Source: Psilocybe cubensis
Taxonomy: Eukaryota
DNA length: 64,000 nucleotides
Assembly: GCA_017499595.2 (NCBI GenBank)
Contig: CM039000.1
Span: forward strand, 2,232,001 to 2,296,000
Direction: 5' to 3'
Shown piece after piece: positions 4,024 to 33,956 of the stretch (the first letter of the stretch is position 1; every line of letters begins with the position of its first letter). A model generated the notes under the pieces. That model searched no databases and was not told the origin of the DNA. It saw nothing but the letters and a program-made list of their open reading frames with translations. Made by a program: the position numbers and the translations under genes.

Positions 4024-6064
4024 ATGGCGAACGTGAATTCGAGCGGATTGCATTCGCTCGCTACCATAATTAAGCGGTAAGTTTCTTCCGATCGTCACTA
4101 GGATTTTAGAACCTATAGCTGAAGCCTGACGTGTCGCTGAAGCCTTGAAGCTGCGGCTTCCCGATTCGAAGATATCGCGCTCGCTATTGATCCATCGACT
4201 GGTTCGAATAGAATAGAACCCGTACAACAATCCAAGTCACCCGCTCAGGAGACATCTACTCCCCATGTCCCCTCAGCACCTCCACCACCTCCACCCCCAG
4301 CACCAGCTGTCGCGGCTCCTGCGGTTCAAGAGACACCAAAGAGTGTACTTTCATTCCATGAAAAGGTCGTCGATGCCAAGGTCAAGCCCTTCCTAGACTT
4401 CACCAAAAACTTTGCTGGTCCTAATGTCGTTGAGATTGTGCGTCAATTCTATCAGAGCGAATCCGTCGTCAAGCTGACAATGATGTTGACGTTTTGAAGA
4501 GTGCTCTAGTTCAAAAGCAGTATGAGATTCTAGGTGATTTCTTGGAACTGGTGTCATCCTGCACAAAGCCGGAACAGAAAACATTGGAGAATATCCTCGG
4601 TCCATTCCTCAAATCCATTGAAGCTATATCTCGTGCCAAGGAAGCCAACAGGCGTGACAGGGACTGGTTCTCGCACTTAACTATCCTAGCAGAGGGTGCA
4701 CCAATCATTGGATGGGTTATCAATGTGAGCATTTGCAATTATTACGTTCTGTGGCGCTAAATGACCATGGTTTTCGTCTAGCCCAAACCTGCACAATTTG
4801 TCGTCGATATCAAGGACACAGTCGTATACTACGGAAATAGGGTGAAACAAGAATACAAAGATAAGTAAGTAGATTGTCTCTTTCCGTGATTGTCATGCAA
4901 GAGTAACCCATGGTACCAGGAATCCTAAACACGTTGAATGGGTTAACCTGTATGTTGCGATCTTCGATGCCATGCAGGCATACATCAAAGAGTATCATGC
5001 TGCTGGCTTGGTGTGGAATTCGAAGGTGTGTAGTTATAGCCAAGTTAATGACGATTTCCTAATACCATTTCACCTCTACTAATCAAGGGTATCCCTGTTC
5101 AAGAATACAAAGCTCAGGGTTCAGCCGAAGCAGGTGGTGCTCCACCACCACCACCACCACCTCCTCCTCCTCCTGCCCCGGTACCTGCACCTGCACCCGC
5201 GACCGCACCTGCAACTGGTGCCGCAGCAGTATTCGCCGAACTCAACCGCGGAGAAGAGGTTACCAAAGGCCTCCGCAAGGTCGACAAGAGCGAAATGACG
5301 CACAAAAATCCGGCGCTAAGAGCTAGTAGTGTTGTCCCAGCATCAACATCGAGTTCAGCAGGTCGGCATTTTATCATGCTTTTTCAATATAATCCCTAAT
5401 CGCTTTACCGACTTTTATTCCAGTTAGTAAGAAACCTCTCAAACCATCCAAGCCACAGGCTCTTGCGGGGAAGAAACCCAGCAAACTTGCGTTGGAAGGA
5501 AACAAGTGGCTAGTGGTAAATATGGTGATCTATTCTTTCCGCAGCTTAGTTGACCTCTGTTCTCAAGGAATATTATGAAAACGAGACTTTGACGATCGAC
5601 CAAACGGAAATCAGCCAATCTGTCAACGTGTACGGTTGCAAAAACACAATCGTTATCATCAAGGGGAAAGTCAATGCGGTCAATATTCGTACGTTCACAA
5701 CCTTTGCCTTATCTGTTTCATACTAATACACTATCATACCCCAGTCAAGGGCTCGAAGACCTCCGTTCTCGTCGATTCGGTTGTGGCTTCTATCTCCATT
5801 ACGGACTCACCATCCTTCCAACTGCAAATCACCGGAACTGCGCCAATGATCCAACTTGACTCAACCGACTCTGGTCAGATTTACCTGTCAAAGCACAGTC
5901 TCAACGCCGAAATCACAACCGCCAAATGCAGCGCGATCAATGTTAGTTTGCCTGTTGCTGGAGAGGAGGAGGGTATCTTTGAAGAGCAACCTGTTCCTGA
6001 GATGTTCAAAACAGTTATTAAGGACGGCAAGCTTGTCACCACAATTGTGGAGCACGCTGGCTGA
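4024..6064 (+). CDS. SRV2: Adenylyl cyclase-associated protein (CAP)
   Basis: N-terminal LATIIKRLEAAASRFEDIA (RLE motif), helical domain, poly-Pro, WH2-like AVFAELNRGEEVTKGLRKVDKSEMTHKNP, and C-terminal CARP domain ending IVEHAG*. Confidence 0.95.
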
Positions 6065-24437: not shown

Positions 24438-26537
24438 CTAATCCGAGTGCGTTGTCGACGTCTTTGTGACATGTACCCCTTGTGCAAGGGCATGTTGACC
24501 TGGGGGCACGACATCGAAGCCACTCTGGCCTAGGTCTGCGGGAAGTGCCGCCGTCTCGTCAAGCGGACCTGTCAAGAGACCTTCCCGTTCCTCCTCGTCC
24601 GACACTCGTGAGAGTGCAGGCTCATGGCGAGGAACAGGCAAGTACGGAGGTGGTGCAACGAGGTCGTTGAACAGGAACTAATGTGCAACAAATCCCATGA
24701 GTTAGAGATAATTGGTAAAACTCTATTTAGATGGGGAAAGAGTTCGCATACCGTGCCATAACTGTTGTGTTTGCACGCGCAGCCAGTCGGTAAGAAGAAG
24801 ATCAATGGGAGAAGAACAAGTCAGTGATTATTCCTTGACAGAAGAGGGTGGGCGCCCCCGCGCCACCGAAGTGTGAAAGGAAAGCTTACACAAGAAGAGA
24901 GAATCCGAGAACTTGGAGCAGAGAAGTCGGAAAGACGAGCTTCTCCCAGCCAAGACCAAGACTGATGATCCAAATAACAAGAGTTCTGCATGTGTCGGTA
25001 AGTGACCGTGCCGTGGCGCTGACATGCCGAGTAACGCTCAGTCCGAAGAAGTTGAAAAGAGATATACTGAGACAAATGGCAAGCCCAGAGTATAGAACTG
25101 TTGGTGTGTAGATCATTTGATACCAGCCGCGGGGAAGGTCAAAGAAGGGAGATATTGCAGATATGGATGGGATGGCCATAATGGGAACAAACATGAGAAC
25201 GGAGATGGTACCAAAGAGACCCTCAAAACCGACGGCGACAAGGGGGGACACGGAATATCGGCCTGCAAAAAAATTAAGCCAACGAAGGTGACCTGATAGG
25301 ACGTAATGGAACTAACTCATGATCTTTTCTGCATATGCAAGTGTATCAGCGTGCGAGACATTTGGAGATGAAAAGTGATGAGAAACGAACCTTCGACAAC
25401 AAACTGAGTGGCAGTGCTAGAGTTTACGTGCGATATATCAGTATGAACATCAACCGAAGAAGAATCGGACATGTGTCAGAGATGAAAAGATGTACACTTA
25501 CAATACCTGCGCAAACAAAACGAAGAATATACCTAGAGGAAAAAAAGGGGAGAGATGTGATGGAGAAAGTGAGTTTGGAATCAAACAAAATCGGTCATTT
25601 AAACTGACCGACAAGGACGCTGGTGACTTGAGGATCCTCGATTGCTTTGGTATGGGGATCGTGGTAGAGATTGAGAGCACGAGCGAGATTATGAACAATA
25701 GACTCTTTGACGGCATCCTTGATGAGTGAACCGCTCCAACCTACCAAGCCAACGCCGGCCATGACGATAATGAGGGATACCCATCTAAAGATTGATAAAA
25801 GTAAGTGAGTGGAGGTGGTGGTATATAATTAACAAAATAAAGCTCCATACTGATAGAGCCAAAGGCGGCGTCGGAGAAACATGACACTAAACACACCAAC
25901 AAACAAGACGAGAGCGCCCCGGGTCATCTGGTAAATGGAGACGGGGGTGTAGAGGAGACCGACATTCATCAACTGGAGATGTAGATGAGGATAAACGGAT
26001 TATGACAAGTAAATCGGGAGGAGACATACGGTTGTGCCAGTGAGATCACAAGCTGCCGGTATCCAAAGGAGGAGGACCTTCCAGCCTTGGAGAGGCTGGG
26101 AAGCGAGCTTATTGAGAGGATCATGATCGGAATCGTCCTCGAGTTGGACGGAAGATTGCCGCCTAGTATTTAACCACGTGTATATAACGGGCAAAAAACC
26201 TAAGCACATGGTTAGACAAGAGAAGTAGAAGGAGATTGTGACTGACATAGCATTTCTCCGACTAGTTCGGTAGATGAGGGTTAAACAAGGAACAAAAGGG
26301 GAGGAGAAGGACGAACTGAACATCTGCAGCGTCTGCCAGACTGGCTGCTCGTAGAGGACATGGTTGGCGGGATTTGGATCAGAACAGTTCTCGACACACT
26401 GCATGTCCTGATACTTGGACCATATAGAATTGCTGGAGCCCTGGAAAGGGTGAGATAAAGGAGAGAACAAGGAGAGATAAGGGTACCGTGAGGAGCATGC
26501 CAACGAGGAGAAAGGGCACATAGAGAGAGGAAGGCAT
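24438..26537 (-). CDS. SLC35F6-like drug/metabolite (nucleotide-sugar) transporter
   Basis: Spliced MPSSLYVPFLLVGMLLT/GSSNSIWSKYQD...QPVWQTLQMF...PAACDLTGTTLMNVGL...SIYQMTRG...QFVVEEKIM...GFEGLFG...FNFFGLSVTRHVSATARS...DTCRT; multiple TM segments. Confidence 0.85.
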
Positions 26538-26741
26538 GGTGGAGGTAGGGAAGAGAGGGGAAAGAGGGGTGGCGTGACGTGACGAATATAATAATAAAAT
26601 ATATAAAATAATAGGAGAGATATTCCCAGGAAGAAGAGGTCCCCGGATGTAAAGAAGCTAGCGTCGACAGATCTTGCTTCTGACGTCCAAGGGTTTTTAT
26701 TCAGATGGCCAACCCATCCGGCTCTCTTTCCTCTCCCCACA

Positions 26742-27704
26742 ATGGTCCAGCTCATCCTCTCCTCCGCCAAAGGTCCTTCGTTTTTCTCTTTGCTCGTTCT
26801 CTACTGATTCTGCTCCTACGACAGGCAACCAGGGCCTCAAATATTTCCCATATGTCGGCTATCTGGGTCTTACCCCAATACGCGTCGAAGGCAGTCAGTC
26901 CTCTTCTTTCTGCTCCTCTCAATCCCCCACATCGCTCACTCATTTTTCTAGTCGTCCGCACCCGTCTAGATGCAGATCTAAAGCCTCTTAGCGCAAGCTC
27001 TCTCACCGTCTCTGTTCGCTGCTACGAGTCTCGCGTAGGTCGTATCAACACACTGCAGTCCAATGTCCTCGTAGACTACACCCAGATTCTCTGGTCAAAA
27101 TCAGACGCTCTCGAGCATGAGCCCATCTCAAATCTCGAGTTTCCGTTTCGCATATCCATCCCCGCAAAGGTCGCCGGGTTCAGTACAGCTCAGTTTGTAG
27201 ATTACCGGTGTGTGTGGAGGGTCGAAGCTGGTATGTTTTGAGGTCCTTTTTCCTTCATTTCTCCTCATCTTTTTCCAATAGTCCTCAACCACGTCCCCAT
27301 AGCCGGAGTCGGGTCTCGTCAGATACGCCACTTTGATCTCCCTCTCATTCGCTATGACCTTCCCCCATTCTCGTCTATCACACCCTCGCCAGAACCCATG
27401 CTTGGCCAGGAAATTAACAAACCTCGCACTCCCCGTTTGCGCTATTCAATCCATCCTCCAAAATCACCTATCGGGCCCTTGGATCTCGTGTCCATCCCCA
27501 TTCATCTCCATCCACTTGATCACGCCGTTTCAATACGAAGCGCAAGTGTCATTGTCGAGCGCCGTATAACTTTGCTTGATGTACCCCAACAGTCTGCGTC
27601 CACCACTCCCATCGTCCCATCCTTGCAACAAAGTCATTCATCTTCGTCTCTCAGCAAAGCATTGTCTCCAAGTCCTCATTTGCCATCATCATCATTTCCA
27701 AGCG

Positions 27705-27740
<36 letters not shown>

Positions 27741-28987
27741 ATCCTGCATATTCCCATTCATATCAAGACTCTGAACCAGTGGCTTCTACTTCAAATCTTT
27801 CAATATCTTCTTCTAATCCTACTATTACACCCGGCACAGTTTATCCTTCATCTGCGTCAATAACATCAGAGACGCCTCTGTTTTATAACTCGATTAATCA
27901 ACATCCCTCACCTCTGACACAGGGTTCATCTTCCAAAGCCGTTGTCAACCCTATCGCTGGCGCAGAATCCTCCGGTCATTTTTCTCATGATGGTAGGGGA
28001 ACATGGACAAAAACACTAACCCTTCAGTGGCCGGCTGCAAAATCACATAGTCGGTGGGCTATCGGCGAAACCATTTCTTCTGAGATTGTATCAGTAAAGT
28101 ATTTCATCCGCACAAAGGTAGCTATTACATTTCTCACTTTCTGTCAAATTCCATTCTTACATTCTTCTTTCTCCAAGATAGTTGTCACTTCCCCTTCTGG
28201 CACAGAAACTATCGAGCTGGCGGACCAAGAACTTCTTGTAGTATCCACAAACGACGCTGAACGACAGCTTGCTCTCGCCAAATATAACGAACTCCAAGAT
28301 GCTATGGTCTCTGACGGTTACTCGAGATCGAAATCCAAGTCTCCCAGACGCTCACGGCCCGAGCGCGACGATTCTGCCATCCCCCCATCACCGGCTCCCA
28401 ACAGCAGCCTCACTACCACTGCAACACCTTATAATAATAGAACCAAGTCCAGCAACCGGCGACCTCACACCAGTGCGGGTCCGCGTGATAAACCCGTGAA
28501 TTTTGCCGGAGGCGCATATGGACGCCCACCACGCGGGCAAGAAGGCGAGGCGACGTTTGGTCAGGCGTCACTGGGAAATGGTGTAGGGACAGGTTCGGGA
28601 AGCGGCCTCGGGAGTACGTCCACAAAACGGCGTTCAGATGTGGTAGTGATGCGCACGACGCAGCGGCCGGACAGCAAGCGTGGGTTTTTGAGTGGGAACG
28701 GGAACGGCAAACTCAGCAGCACTAGTTTCTGGTCAACAGTGCATTCAAATGGTGTGGCACCCCGTGTAAAGGCTGCGCCGAGCGGGAGCAGCACAAGTAC
28801 GACGGCCAGCTCATCGAGTGTGTCGAGCAGCAGTCATGGCGGGGACTCTGAAACGTCGGAACACATGCGCGAATGGGAAGAGGAACTTGCAAAAATTGAA
28901 GTGAAGAGCCGTCGCTCAAGTGACTTGCTCGGTTTCTCCGGAAAGAGAAAACGACCTGGTGTCGCGAGGGTGATAGTCCCTAACTGA
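26742..28987 (+). CDS. Hypothetical protein with arrestin-like beta-sandwich N-terminus and Ser-rich disordered regions
   Basis: Spliced MVQLILSSAKG/NQGLKYFPYVGYLGLTPIRVEG/IVRTRL...VSVRCYESR...LEFPFRISIP...YRCVWRVEA, followed by the long ORF 27398-28987. The arrestin fold is an inference. Confidence 0.6.
27705..27737 (+). repeat. (CAT)11 microsatellite encoding poly-Ser
   Basis: 11 perfect CAT units, read as TCA (Ser) in the coding frame. Confidence 0.9.
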
Positions 28988-29416
28988 TTCCTTGCGGGTG
29001 TTTTTTTATTTTCTTCCTTGTTTTTCTCTTTTCTTTTTTCGTTCTGTAGTCTTACATTTTATGCATTATTCCTCTTGTTTTCTTCTTCTGCTCACCTGCA
29101 TTTGCTTACTAGTCGTCTTCATCGTCGCTGTCCATCATCTCATTATTTTGTTCATGCCTCTTGGATCTGTTCTGCATAGCTCTCTTGTACCATCTTTCGT
29201 CATGCATATCACGACTTGATACCACGCGCACATTCTGGCGTCTTAATAAATAATACCTATTCTGCACATCCAAAATCAATGCATTGTTGCCGGTGTGGGC
29301 TAGCTTCCTTGTCGCGTTCGCGTTCGTGACTGTGACCCGAGTTACAAGACGTGAAATCTCCGCATCGTCTCGGAATGTCTCAACCAAGGACTCTAACTCT
29401 TACAGTCACCACCATC

Positions 29417-31287
29417 ATGTCGGGCAGCTTTCCATGGGTCAGATTCACAGGTTTCTCGCTAGCTCGTGCGTCCTGATGCCTTCCATATTATCTCTGCTAA
29501 TATTGCCTCGTTCTTTTCTTGAATTCTCTTCCTGAACCCTGTCTTCCGAAATTCTGAACCACACAACCCATTCGCCTTCTTTCGACTCGTTGCTGATATA
29601 TATTGCGCATACATTTACCAATTGTCGCTTCCTTTCCTCTCTTGGCGTGTCGGCTTTTCGCTCGTTCGGCGTGGCGATGGCTTCGTGAATGCCTGACAAT
29701 ATGGCCCTTTCAACTCTTACCACCACTGGTGCGGCTTTTGGCTTTCCGTCAATTGCCTTCTTTTGCGCTTCGCCACGGCTTCCGGGCTGTGTATGTGCTT
29801 GGTTCACTGAAACGATAAATGACGATCTCGATATCGTTAACCCTCTACTGGTGGCTGAATGGGTGTGGTGTGATGTAATCTGTCCATGGGGTGCCGTGTT
29901 GCGGTCTCGTGGACACACGACGCGACCTCGGCGTATCCACTTCCAATGCTTGCTACCAATCCCGGGGGAAATACCGACGCTATTACGACGACTCTAATAT
30001 CTTTGTTCGTTCCATATCGACTTTTACTTCCTTCGGCATCGTATGTAGTGATGGGTGTAGGTTATGGACTTATGAAAGGTTCGTCATTCTCGGACTAGAT
30101 TCATATACACTATCGCTAGTTCGTCGAAGAACTTGGACTAGTAGAGCAACCATGAAGCCATTGGAACTGTTCTGATGACGCTTCATTTTCGCTTTATGCT
30201 CTATCTTGCACTCTTTGTCTCTTGCTTTGCTCAACACTTCTTTTTTAATCTCCTGCTAACTCGCTATGCCATTCAGCCACAGTCCCTACAGAAGAACAAC
30301 TCTATAACGTGAGTTTTACCAATTCATTCAATCTTCTCGTTCATTTCTCTGTGTCTTGCTTATTTATTCGAATATTGTACCTCAATTGGGTAGTTGGCGC
30401 ATGCCTTCTCTTATCTTGATCTCTGTATGGATTGTTGCTTTTTCAGTGCGCGGTGGGATCCTTCCGTATACGCATTCTTCGGTGTATGTGGCGTTGTACA
30501 CCGGAAAGAAAAAATGACGATCTCTCCACATGCCTAGCGCTGCGGATTCCCTGCCCTGCGTTCTTAGGGTTGCTCTGTAAGCCATAGGACGGTGGGCAGA
30601 GGGGTGTCTTCTTTTCTATTGGGGAGTCGTCATCATGCTTCTCCCGGATGCCGCGAACTGGCTATGCTTTCATCTTACACCCAATTCCGGACTTTCAAAG
30701 TTGGCTTCATGTCACGCTCTATTTGACTTCTTCATATGCGCCTCGCCTTGAAGAACAAGCTTCTGTTGTATTTTTATTCTGCTTTTTAAATAACTTGCTT
30801 ACATCCACTCCTTTGCATCATCGGACCTACATTGGACTCTTTTTTCTGACCTATCTTCTTTGACTTTTTTTTTCATCGCCTGATATTTTGGGCGTTTGTG
30901 GAAATATGCAGGAAATGGCCCCCGATCTGAGGCGTAAAGTAGACGCTAATCGTGCCGCCCGCCTTGCCCGAGAGGCCGAAATGAAGAGACAGGTGGATGC
31001 CCAAGTGAGTGTTGGTATCTCTTTTAAGGTTATCGCTCCGCCCAAGGAGATGCTATCGATAGCATTCAAAGTTTCCACGTTTTGTGTCTTTCTTCTTCTT
31101 TTGCAGTGTCAATCCTTTTTGAGGATGTTGGAATAAGAACGGAGATTTTTCGTTCCATTTATGTCTTTCTTAAAATATATCGCATTCTTCTACTAATCCC
31201 AAGCTCTGCAACTTGTAGGTTGCAGGTGTAAACAACCAAGAGGCGGCGAAACCTATATGGGCGGATCCTCCTTCTGTCAAAAAATAA
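29417..31287 (+). CDS. CBP4: Cytochrome b / complex III assembly factor Cbp4 (5 exons, 90 aa)
   Basis: Exons 29417-29465, 30049-30078, 30277-30308, 30912-31004 and 31219-31287 splice in frame with GT-AG ends to MSGSFPWVRFTGFSLALMGVGYGLMKATVPTEEQLYNEMAPDLRRKVDANRAARLAREAEMKRQVDAQVAGVNNQEAAKPIWADPPSVKK*. N-terminal TM, (T)PTEEQL...PDLR and PIW are Cbp4-family hallmarks. Confidence 0.85.
29555..30035 (+). ncRNA. Candidate structured intronic RNA in CBP4 intron 1 (class unknown)
   Basis: Long-range stem 29558-29576/29853-29869, hairpin 29893-29932, a motif shared with intron 3, and 18S-antisense segments. Boundaries are a guess. Confidence 0.4.
30384..30690 (+). ncRNA. Candidate structured intronic RNA in CBP4 intron 3 (class unknown)
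   Basis: Closing stem AATTGGGT 30384-30391 / ACCCAATT 30679-30686; hairpin CGGTGTA...TACACCG; helix ATGACGA(T)CTCTCCA from 30514 with TGGGGAGTCGTCAT 30620-30633; nested hairpin CTGCCC...GGGCAG. Confidence 0.45.
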
Positions 31288-33956
31288 CTGCATGCCTGCC
31301 GCACGCCACTGGTCTGCAGAGATCTTTGCGATTCTCTTTTGCGTAAAGCTACTCTTCTCGTTGTATGCCATTCGGGGACTGACCCAGAAAGACCATAGAT
31401 TGTCGCAAGTCCATTATCCCAAAAGTCTTTCTTATAGTTGTTCAACACCCCCCCTCATTTATGTACGAATATCAATTCTAATTTTTTTTATCTTGTTTTC
31501 CCATCATTCATTACTGTGACACTCGGGCCTAACTCTAGGCATGCTAAAATTACAGCAGGATATCAACCGTCGCTGTCGTCCATCGTACGAATGTTCCTAC
31601 TTTGCATCGTCAGTGGCCCGACGCGAGTGGATCATGAATGGGTCACGGAGAGATTGATACATATGGTTGCCACACACACGTAGATGCTAATGTCCGAAGT
31701 TGGATATAACAAGGCGCGCAGGCAAACAGACAGACAGGTTGAACGAATTTCCATCTACGATTCACGCGTGGTTTCCCAAGCGACTCTCGTTCGCGTTGTC
31801 GACTCCCATCTCACACGCACTTACGCGGCTCCGGAGTTGCCACTACAGCGTCCGCCCTGTTTGACAGTATCAGAACGCCGGTTGAAATTCTGCCGGCTTG
31901 CAGCCTGTGGGTGTTCGATGTGGAGTTGCTGCTTCGTCTAGCGCGTTGTTTGCCTCAAGGCCAACCTTAGTACAGGAGTCAATCTAAAGAGTCACACTAA
32001 GGGTTATAAAATTTGGCTGTGCGTTGGTTTATGGGGTTTTCTTGTGGGTTCTTAGTCTTGAGTCTATTTAAGACTCAATCAATGCATTCAGCATCACAGA
32101 ACCGTTGGAAATCGCGAGCGATGTCCATATCTCGTCAAGTTACATACTACTTTACCGGCCAACCATTGATCCTTGTTTCTCCGTTTGTTTTAGCGTACTT
32201 TGGTACTCTGTTGCTCAGGAGTCAGAAGGCAATGATGACTTGCAATGCTGAATCGCGCACCTACTATACTTACTTACGAATCGCAGCCCACTTGTTTGAC
32301 TTGCCTCCTTCTGTCGACTTGGGGCATTGCAGGGAGACTAATGTATTGAAAAGCAAAGTTAACAAGTACGCATTGTCAATAATAATTACCAAGTAGTCCC
32401 TCTGTCTGTATTGCACATAAATGGGGTATAAGAAGTACATGGCTCGGTGTCCGCTGCAAGGGTATCCTTGGATTCAATTGTTGCTGTTCTGCATCATTAT
32501 CTGGATTTCTGGAAATTTGGCGGCCGCTGTGTGTGGTAGTACCCGTAGCCTTCTCGACTTGTTACTTTTAGGGTTTTGTCCAGTGCCATAGCAGCACTGT
32601 AATCAGTAATTTGAGAAAACCTTTGTCACAGTATTTCCATTCAATGGTTATATATTTGATAAAAGGCATATATGTATAGAAGAATAATAACATTGGATGG
32701 TGCAACTTCAAGTTCCTGCTACCATGGGCATTCAAGCGTCCAAAGTCAAACGACTGCGCCATGGCATCTCTGAACCTCTGGTAAAGCGAATATAAGGCAT
32801 AGTCCGCTTTTTTGAAATTTGAGTTTAAGCATTATGTACGCCAGCCGTGGAAATGGTTCAAGGATGATCGAACTAGCAGCTTAGCCGCGCCGCGGAGTGA
32901 GGAATTGGGAGACGTCTCAGCTGTCAGTTCACACTGTCGCCTTGCTTTGTCGTCATATCGCCCAAATGCTAGTTCTTTTCCACGGCTAGTTTTATTCAGA
33001 AAGGTGCGCTGATAGCTGATTGACTTTGCCTCGGAAGTAGCGTTCCGTAAAGACGCTACAATGCGTGGACAGGTAAGCGCATGCACCCACGCGTACCGCT
33101 ATCTTAATGCTAACTTACCTACTCCGGCCAAACTTCAGCTACGACTATGAATGCAAATCAAAAGTTGTAGAGACATTGGCAGACGTTAATGCAAGAGTTG
33201 CACTAAGCTAATCCATAGCCACTATTCGCTAGCGGTGACATCAAAACTGCCACAGCGGCGTATGACAGCGTATGACTAAGATCATCGCCCGCGAGCGGTT
33301 GCTGGGAGCAGTTATATTTAGAACAATTGCCAAGTTGTTGCTATTCATGGCGTAATCCGGCGGCAAGTCGACTCTCAGGCTGGCGCCCGGTATATTGTTT
33401 TTGATTTACCCAAGTTCATATTCAACTTGGGAGATAAGTATTTATACTGTTTCTCTGGCCCAGGCAATATTAACCTGCTCATATGTCACTTATTGGAGTA
33501 CGACCATCGTAATTTAAGTTCAAGTGAGATAGTAGTCGTGGCTCATGAAGGTCGTCTAAGGTCGTAACGTTTTGCCAAAAACGTGCCTGCAAATGGTAGC
33601 AAAGGAGCGACATCATAAAATGCAGTGAACTGGGGTCGAACGATAGGAATGCTGAAAAGAATGATGCCAGGTCGATAATACAGTAGATGGAATAGAATGC
33701 AGCTCATTTCAAGCACATATGCACGCAATGATAGATGTGACTGCGTCCGACTTCATCTCGAGAGTAAAGTCACGCACACAACTCAATGGTAGTTAGTGAC
33801 ATATGAAGTGTGGGGACGCGCACTGTAGATAGTGCAGTGGAGCTTATTGGGTACAGTAATGCATAGAATAAGAGTGAAAGCTTCCACAGATAACAAAATT
33901 AAAATGAATAGAAGAAAATCCGCAACATCGTCTCACCTCACCAGGCTCACCTCGCC

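Follow-up and report, generated by a model that had tools for sequence, protein, structure and literature searches.

An AG-free first intron in the CBP4 gene of Psilocybe cubensis and its probable origin in selection downstream of a putative 5'-proximal branch site

Why should a fungal intron of 583 nucleotides (nt) contain no AG dinucleotide other than the one at which it ends? The question is raised by intron 1 of CBP4, the gene for a mitochondrial complex-III assembly factor, in a stretch of 64,000 nt from Psilocybe cubensis (assembly GCA_017499595.2, contig CM039000.1, positions 2,232,001 to 2,296,000, forward strand). This whole stretch is referred to as the window, and all positions are counted from its first letter. 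An earlier note, made from the letters of the window, had described a 583-nt CBP4 intron without internal AG, in which GA was common and about 20 AG were expected. It had proposed that branching takes place near the donor, that every AG downstream is selected against, and that some 550 nt of structured RNA are carried in the lariat tail.

The junction 29465/30049 which that note had predicted was confirmed by contig joints in runs X1 and X2. Neither run is on record as RNA; both were taken as RNA-like on the basis of spliced joints and the lack of cover over the silent stretch 32350-33500, and as contigs they give neither expression level nor strand nor lariats. Only one joint departs from 29465 in these contigs, no joints or loose ends of a lariat type were listed among them, and further joints support four more introns of CBP4, of 198, 603, 214 and 56 nt. 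Pfam searches with the single CBP4 exons produced no significant match, the exons being too short. A search with exon 4 led to orthologs, in genera that include Crassisporium, Agrocybe, Flammula, Lyophyllum, Coprinopsis, Psilocybe, Paxillus and Gyrodon, which are annotated with Pfam PF07960 and under names like 'Assembly factor CBP4', and the spliced product of 90 amino acids (aa) aligned end to end with annotated CBP4 of Agaricales; together these place the protein in the family over its whole length and uphold the identity proposed earlier. Positions 29466-30048 are a genuine spliced intron, intron 1 of the CBP4 gene of this Agaricales fungus. DNA contigs of another strain (X3 and X4) were colinear across the intron 1 region, and the AG-free sequence is therefore real and no assembly artefact. 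Three substitutions were present inside the intron in that strain (29727, 29835 and 29847); as read from sequence context none of them makes an AG, although three sites are too few to inform. Among the 1743 single substitutions possible in intron 1 of the window, 223 would create an AG.

The motifs pointed out in the earlier note, namely the donor GTGCGT at 29466 and a CTAAT both near the donor and near the acceptor, were all found. The intron, its AG exclusion zone and the candidate branch sites within it are as follows.

29466..30048, plus strand: CBP4 intron 1, 583 nt, GTGCGT...TAG; from the joint 29465>30049, which skips 583 nt with GT..AG ends, and dinucleotide counts.
30047..30048, plus strand: acceptor AG of intron 1, the sole AG there; from the dinucleotide count and the joint.
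29463..30046, plus strand: AG exclusion zone, running from the exonic AG at 29461-62 to the acceptor AG; from the AG-run scan and shuffles.
29497..29501, plus strand: CTAAT at intron position +32, with 29500 as the putative branch A, 548 nt before the acceptor G; from the motif and its recurrence in orthologs.
29593..29597, plus strand: CTGAT, an extra CTRAY and possible alternative branch site (+128); from the motif.
29693..29697, plus strand: CTGAC, an extra CTRAY and possible alternative branch site (+228); from the motif.
29994..29998, plus strand: CTAAT about 50 nt before the acceptor, candidate proximal or 'relay' branch site; from the motif.

The absence of AG from intron 1 goes well beyond base composition. 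The intron is 61% pyrimidine (A 100, C 161, G 126, T 196), and its composition predicts 21.6 AG where a single one, the acceptor, was observed. GA was counted 25 times against the same expectation of 21.6, and the other 14 dinucleotides occurred at about their expected frequencies, in agreement with the original description. The AG-free run 29461..30047 measures 586 nt and is the longest run without any given dinucleotide in the 64-kilobase (kb) window; the next longest AG-free runs on the plus strand are of 152 and 131 nt, and the longest run lacking any other dinucleotide is 300 nt (GG). Mononucleotide shuffling of the 545-nt tail of the intron gave no AG-less sequence in 20000 attempts, with a mean of 20.3 AG. 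When the window was taken together with 25 related loci, both strands (221 kb in total), the most improbable AG-free run was CBP4 intron 1 and the second most improbable was the orthologous intron 1 of locus L003.

The related loci were collected by a metagenome scan with a CBP4 alignment, which yielded 25 loci. Intron 1 was placed by one frame-consistent GT..AG pair, automatically in 17 loci and by hand in L001; L002, L016, L024 and L025 stop short of it, and L010 is an intron-less cDNA-like contig. In the 18 orthologs intron 1 sits at the same codon position. It is an ordinary intron of 54-72 nt in 14 loci, with L011 and L013 also short by eye, and it is long in four. The five long versions, including that of the window, are listed below with the position of the branch-site motif, the length of the tail past the last internal AG, the number of AG expected in that tail, and the number of AG-less sequences per 20000 shuffles of the tail.

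Window intron 1, 583 nt: CTAAT at +32; tail 582 nt, 21.3 AG expected, 0 shuffles AG-less.
L003 intron 1, 301 nt: CTGAT at +39; tail 282 nt, 10.2 AG expected, 1 shuffle AG-less.
L001 intron 1, 156 nt: CTGAC at +33; tail 151 nt, 3.6 AG expected, 530 shuffles AG-less.
L004 intron 1, 122 nt: CTGAC at +37; tail 86 nt, 4.1 AG expected, 133 shuffles AG-less.
L005 intron 1, 104 nt: CTAAT at +35; tail 72 nt, 2.6 AG expected, 1146 shuffles AG-less.

None of the five tails contains an AG, where about 42 were expected in total. All five long versions carry a CTRAY motif at +32 to +39, and such internal AGs as they have are confined to +4 to +35, upstream of the motif; in L004 and L005 an AG stands immediately before it. 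When the five versions were pooled, AG occupied 8 of 166 positions upstream of the motif and 0 of 1055 downstream (Fisher p = 1e-7). L001, L004 and L005 have no CTRAY closer to the acceptor than the motif at +33 to +37 (L004 has an extra one at +11), and in these three the acceptor lies 120, 82 and 66 nt, respectively, from the motif A. Among the short versions, intron 1 of L009 measures 68 nt; its branch motif stands at +45, and the acceptor follows 20 nt later on. Agaricales-like contigs supplied three of the long versions (window, L003 and L001) and Boletales-like contigs the other two (L004 and L005), the best named matches of the latter contigs being Paxillus, Gyrodon and Hydnomerulius. 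A blastn search of the window intron against the window and all loci (word size 7, E <= 1) returned only the self-match. The tails have diverged past recognition and yet are AG-free, which indicates that the absence of AG is kept by selection and is not inherited as sequence.

The other introns of CBP4 served as controls, and their rows are given here.

30079..30276, plus strand: CBP4 intron 2, 198 nt, 7 internal AG against 7.0 expected; from joints and the AG count.
30309..30911, plus strand: CBP4 intron 3, 603 nt, 14 internal AG against 22.6 expected, control of the same size; from joints and the AG count.
31005..31218, plus strand: CBP4 intron 4, 214 nt, 12 AG including the acceptor against 8.8 expected; from joints and the AG count.

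Intron 3 is close to intron 1 in both size and composition, yet it retains its 14 internal AG, and its CTRAY motifs sit near the 3' end only. Its orthologs behaved similarly, with 71 AG beyond +40 in the seven versions of at least 100 nt where 83.0 were expected. Intron 2 has an AG-free zone, 119 nt in length, whose start lies just before the CTGAT at 30172. The second and seventh longest AG-free runs on the plus strand of the window end exactly at the acceptors of introns 3 (152 nt) and 2 (119 nt). A CTRAY at +28 to +45 was found in none of ten long control introns. The four introns in the coding region of CBP4 are all unusually long (583, 198, 603 and 214 nt), compared with 51-60 nt for those of the neighbouring gene, and the best-supported reading is that the other CBP4 introns of this lineage grew as well, but on the upstream side of their branch sites, where AG may occur. 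Long introns that are commonly AG-free, a circumstance which the earlier note had named as fatal to its proposal, were not seen among CBP4's own introns, in the 64-kb window or in the 25 metagenome loci, which is what the comparison covers. Further expectations of that note on this point were borne out: orthologous introns share the absence of AG (five of five long versions), the zone begins at a branch-site motif about 30 nt after the donor (five of five against none of ten controls), and selection against every AG is supported by the ortholog tails, the intron 3 control, the shuffles and the lack of sequence similarity.

The proposal of a structured or hosted RNA did not fare as well. For intron 1 the minimum free energy (MFE) corresponded to z = -1.02, a stability that 17 of 100 shuffles matched, and for the five ortholog tails z ranged from -0.72 to +1.20 against dinucleotide shuffles (window tail, -0.61). 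Measured on the MFE structure, the path from branch region to acceptor had a graph distance of 41 in the window, compared with a shuffle median of 16; in the five tails, a proportion of 0.97, 0.76, 0.20, 0.97 and 0.01 of the shuffles had a distance no greater than the one observed, with no consistent shortening. Shuffled tails also bring their ends within a few tens of steps, so a generic shortening through space is available without any selected structure. An Rfam scan of 28900-31200 (E <= 1) found nothing in the intron and one chance-level match outside it. A search for repeats in intron 1 gave just an imperfect direct repeat of 14 nt and nothing that would point to tandem duplication as the mode of growth or to a mobile element. 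The tail as a structured or hosted RNA was rejected on these grounds, its folding being like that of shuffles, with no Rfam family and no conservation among orthologs. The earlier claims of about 550 nt of structured RNA and of an intron that hosts or releases an RNA are thus not supported.

What, then, would keep AG out of the intron? In published systems, the spliceosome takes the first AG that lies more than about 8-12 nt past the branch point, and a branch point far from its acceptor is recognised by an AG exclusion zone (PMC1431707, PMC7969005). Introns of more than 150 nt in the basidiomycete C. neoformans commonly show early or distal branching (bioRxiv 10.1101/224170). In the CBP4 intron of the window the stretch that follows the CTAAT at 29497-29501 is 80% pyrimidine, and in the long orthologous versions internal AGs are found only upstream of the motif. 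We consider it probable (roughly 0.7) that the absence of AG from intron 1 is the footprint of purifying selection, with a 5'-proximal branch site and an expanded spacer as the mechanism. The intron would have kept its branch site at the ancestral place, some 35 nt past the donor, as is usual for a fungal intron of 55-70 nt, and the spacer between branch site and acceptor would have grown, reaching 66-548 nt in different lineages and 548 nt in the window. Exon ligation after branching would use the first downstream AG, and any AG in the spacer would turn acceptor and ruin the 90-aa frame. Mutations creating AG would be purged, and only AG-free sequence would build up. The spacer, being neither conserved nor specially structured, would act like the unstructured, scanned AG exclusion zones of vertebrate introns with distant branch points. 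We infer that the first-AG rule applies in this organism and that the spacer grew gradually. A29500 would serve as a branch point, either as the main one or alongside others.

Several observations weigh against this explanation. A29500 is a candidate placed by its motif, and the two longest versions of the intron have a CTRAY nearer the acceptor (CTAAT 50 nt upstream in the window, CTGAT 65 nt upstream in L003), so that in these two the main branch may have moved to the acceptor-near motif. The ortholog introns are bounded by homology and frame, not by RNA, and the short tails are weak one by one, since 133 to 1146 of 20000 shuffles were AG-free. Unspliced contigs lie over intron 1, and its splicing may be incomplete. 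Published work on other fungi also argues that long distances from branch to acceptor are used inefficiently. Reporters with a spacing of at least 30 nt were poorly excised in S. pombe (PMC9508853), splicing of ACT1 in S. cerevisiae was lost once it was extended to about 120 nt (PMC3239191), and in C. neoformans the distance is typically 15-30 nt, with more than 50 nt described as what 'may be prohibitively large' (bioRxiv 10.1101/224170).

The alternative that survives best is a relay, in which the productive branch is proximal, at the CTAAT 29994-29998 about 50 nt from the acceptor or at a looser motif still nearer, and in which the upstream CTRAY motifs (+32, +128 and +228) are used occasionally. 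Early-branched intermediates would then ligate to an internal AG or stall, and the working distance would be about 50 nt and not 548 nt. The proximal CTAAT of the window is followed by 70% pyrimidines in the last 30 nt before the acceptor AG, and L003 has its CTGAT at a comparable place; long distances are handled poorly by fungal spliceosomes (PMC9508853, PMC3239191, 10.1101/224170) and early branching is frequent in long basidiomycete introns (10.1101/224170). However, a nearer CTRAY is absent from the long introns of L001 (156 nt), L004 (122 nt) and L005 (104 nt), whose acceptors lie 120, 82 and 66 nt from the motif A, and the three extra CTRAY motifs in the 545-nt tail of the window are near the two or so expected by chance from a rough estimate based on base frequencies. 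Full exclusion of about 20 expected AGs would be hard to sustain if few transcripts branched early, and the motif around +35 has been kept in all five long versions despite divergence of the rest beyond recognition. We regard this alternative as unlikely, and on one point it agrees with the preferred explanation: in both, a 5'-proximal branch site is what makes selection act against AG.

It is a good deal less probable that the AG-free tail is itself functional, either through a regulated or slow second step that tunes CBP4 (thermosensor-like, or a factor-dependent search for the 3' splice site) or as a lariat-borne RNA. Low-depth unspliced contigs over intron 1 in both X1 and X2 would fit such regulation, vertebrate zones of distant branch points often bear regulatory elements (PMC1431707), and S. 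pombe has dedicated factors for branch-distant acceptors (PMC9508853). Against this, the orthologous tails show no sequence conservation and vary in length from 72 to 582 nt, no Rfam family was found, and neither stability nor compaction exceeded that of shuffles. A single joint departs from 29465, and unspliced contigs cover intron 3 as well, so retention is not specific to intron 1.

Chance, base composition or an opposite-strand feature (a CT-free antisense element or a 157-aa minus-strand open reading frame (ORF)) can be dismissed as highly improbable, for although the intron is pyrimidine-rich and the ORF is present, composition predicts 21.6 AG and none of 20000 shuffles was AG-free, intron 3 of like size and composition has its 14 internal AG, the pattern recurs in orthologs of unrelated sequence where it is anchored at a sense-strand branch motif, and the ORF has no Pfam match.

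With selection downstream of a 5'-proximal branch site as the preferred explanation, a further step can be put forward tentatively, at somewhat less than even odds: that Agaricomycete spliceosomes branch at the ancestral position, some 35 nt past the donor, and from there search for the acceptor in one direction and independently of structure, across more than 500 nt. If true, this search would span about twenty times the usual fungal branch-to-acceptor distance and would be longer than in the vertebrate examples compared. Intron 1 of CBP4 would then constitute a natural 'ruler series' of 66, 82, 120, 259 and 548 nt across species, in which scanning and diffusion become testable, and 'early branching' in long basidiomycete introns would be productive and no dead end.

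Judged by its sequence, CBP4 intron 1 appears to belong to the known class of introns with distant branch points and AG exclusion zones. Such zones measure at least 100-150 nt and exceed what composition allows (here 582 nt with 21.3 AG expected), they begin with a branch motif and pyrimidine tract, upstream of which AGs may occur, and they are conserved in orthologs (here five versions of 104-583 nt). The vertebrate members (Gooding et al. 2006, PMC1431707) include PTB exon 11, nPTB, GABBR1 exon 23, HTR4 and alpha-tropomyosin exon 3. Examples given there are a zone of 438 nt (nPTB, predicted) and one of 381 nt (PTB exon 11, with the branch verified at -351). The CBP4 intron shares with them the long AG-free region from branch motif and pyrimidine tract to the acceptor, the return of AGs just upstream, the conservation of the zone in orthologs and the unstructured spacer (human zones looked unstructured, PMC3239191). 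It differs in that it occurs in a fungus with short introns, that the zone spans the whole intron (582 nt, of which 548 nt from the putative branch A), that splicing appears constitutive and does not concern a regulated cassette or mutually exclusive exon, and that its branch point is a candidate put forward from the motif.

A similar layout is that of OGDH, in which branch points lie 25-41 nt from the donor, the zone is about 280 nt and AGs are purged (PMC7969005). As in OGDH, the branch site would lie a few tens of nt past the donor, and at the level of the motif A at +35 falls within the range of about 25-46 nt characteristic of that type; nearly the whole intron is an AG exclusion zone, the layout is conserved over long evolutionary time, and AG-creating changes are thought to be purged. 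In OGDH, however, the branch site is too near its own donor, which enforces the mutually exclusive exons 4a/4b and restricts intron length. In CBP4 a donor-branch spacing of 35 nt is normal for fungi, and the intron was expanded rather than kept short. Mutually exclusive homologous flanking exons were not found in CBP4, as exons 1 and 2 are joined in the RNA-like contigs and, by alignment, both are needed for the conserved N-terminal helix. An OGDH-type device for mutually exclusive exons was rejected, both flanking exons being included.

Among fungi, the S. cerevisiae introns of COF1 and UBC13 likewise have branch-acceptor distances beyond the usual (PMC3239191). In these two the distance exceeds 50-60 nt, a stem-loop both shortens it and masks silent AGs, and the yeast spliceosome is stated not to scan. 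Unlike them, CBP4 intron 1 has no internal AGs to mask and its folding (z = -1.02) does not exceed that of shuffles, and the structure-dependent case of budding yeast was rejected for this reason. There is also a resemblance to the early or distal branching of C. neoformans and S. pombe, as a putative case of branching near the 5' end of an unusually long basidiomycete intron, with a branch-to-acceptor distance far above the typical 15-30 nt (10.1101/224170). Those events are described as non-canonical and possibly unproductive, unlike the CBP4 footprint, which implies consequential and probably productive branching over evolutionary time in one gene. A literature search found no report on AG exclusion zones in basidiomycetes, and among the papers listed none concerned filamentous fungi, although longer zones may be tabulated in supplements. 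The CBP4 intron would be a fungal, very long version of a known architecture.

How the 3' splice site is found after branching is debated between linear scanning, distance-limited diffusion and help from RNA structure, and the fungal work compared here (PMC9508853, PMC3239191 and 10.1101/224170) describes distances above about 30-120 nt as inefficient or structure-dependent. CBP4 intron 1, with the graded spacers of its orthologs, offers a natural system for the choice of the first AG at extreme distance. The same system bears on second-step factors (e.g. Slu7/Prp18 or Sde2/Cactin/Tls1 orthologs) and on the productivity of early-branch intermediates in basidiomycetes. Fungal gene prediction would overlook such introns where it looks for branch sites in windows fixed relative to the acceptor, and a deleterious effect would be predicted for any variant that creates an AG within intron 1.

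The remaining features of the CBP4 gene are as follows.

29417..29465, plus strand: exon 1, coding part, with ATG at 29417, 16 codons plus 1 nt; from sequence and spliced alignment.
30049..30078, plus strand: exon 2, 30 nt; from joints and alignment.
30277..30308, plus strand: exon 3, 32 nt; from joints and alignment.
30912..31004, plus strand: exon 4, 31 codons, with the conserved MAPDLRRKVD block; from the exon-4 search and alignment.
31219..31287, plus strand: exon 5, coding part, with TAA at 31285-31287, the exon continuing to 31342; from alignment and joints.
31343..31398, plus strand: 56-nt intron in the 3' untranslated region (UTR); from the joint 31342>31399 in X1 and X2.

The 3' UTR junction 31342/31399 lies 55 nt past the stop codon at 31285-31287. 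In other eukaryotes, a junction roughly this far past the stop codon can set off nonsense-mediated decay. The low-depth RNA-like contigs mentioned above cover parts of introns 1 and 3 (29476-30078 and 30394-30941) at a depth of 6-13, compared with 45-184 for spliced contigs. One of them stops exactly at the end of exon 2 (30078), which fits partly spliced pre-mRNA, a fraction not quantifiable from contigs. The 157-aa minus-strand ORF (29445-29918) lies antisense within intron 1 and has a GTG start; nothing marks it as a gene. In the ortholog loci, intron 2 of L004 (about 4752-4863, 112 nt) is free of internal AG and carries a CTRAY at +38, and in CBP4 intron 3 of L009 (136 nt) the sole internal AG falls within the donor. 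Agaricomycete introns may therefore have lengthened repeatedly in this manner, with the branch site anchored near the 5' end and the tail behind it devoid of AG.

Elsewhere in the window, the region 26500-29290 is transcribed and has four short RNA-supported introns. It contains an ORF of 529 aa (27398 to 28987) that is serine-rich and of low complexity, with no Pfam match in its last 270 aa and with a poly-Ser/His stretch (27697-27745) at which the contigs break. At the edge of the window, positions 61-266 on the minus strand form the third most improbable AG-free run in the 221 kb, with 204 nt and 9.9 AG expected; by a rough estimate, a run this improbable could be met about once by chance in that amount of sequence. 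A donor-like GTGCGT lies about 13 nt into the run, which ends in ...CTGCAG, and the branch-like motifs CTCAC and CTAAA follow the donor-like site by about 45-57 nt. The run may represent a second intron wholly without AG, some 190 nt long, belonging to a minus-strand gene.

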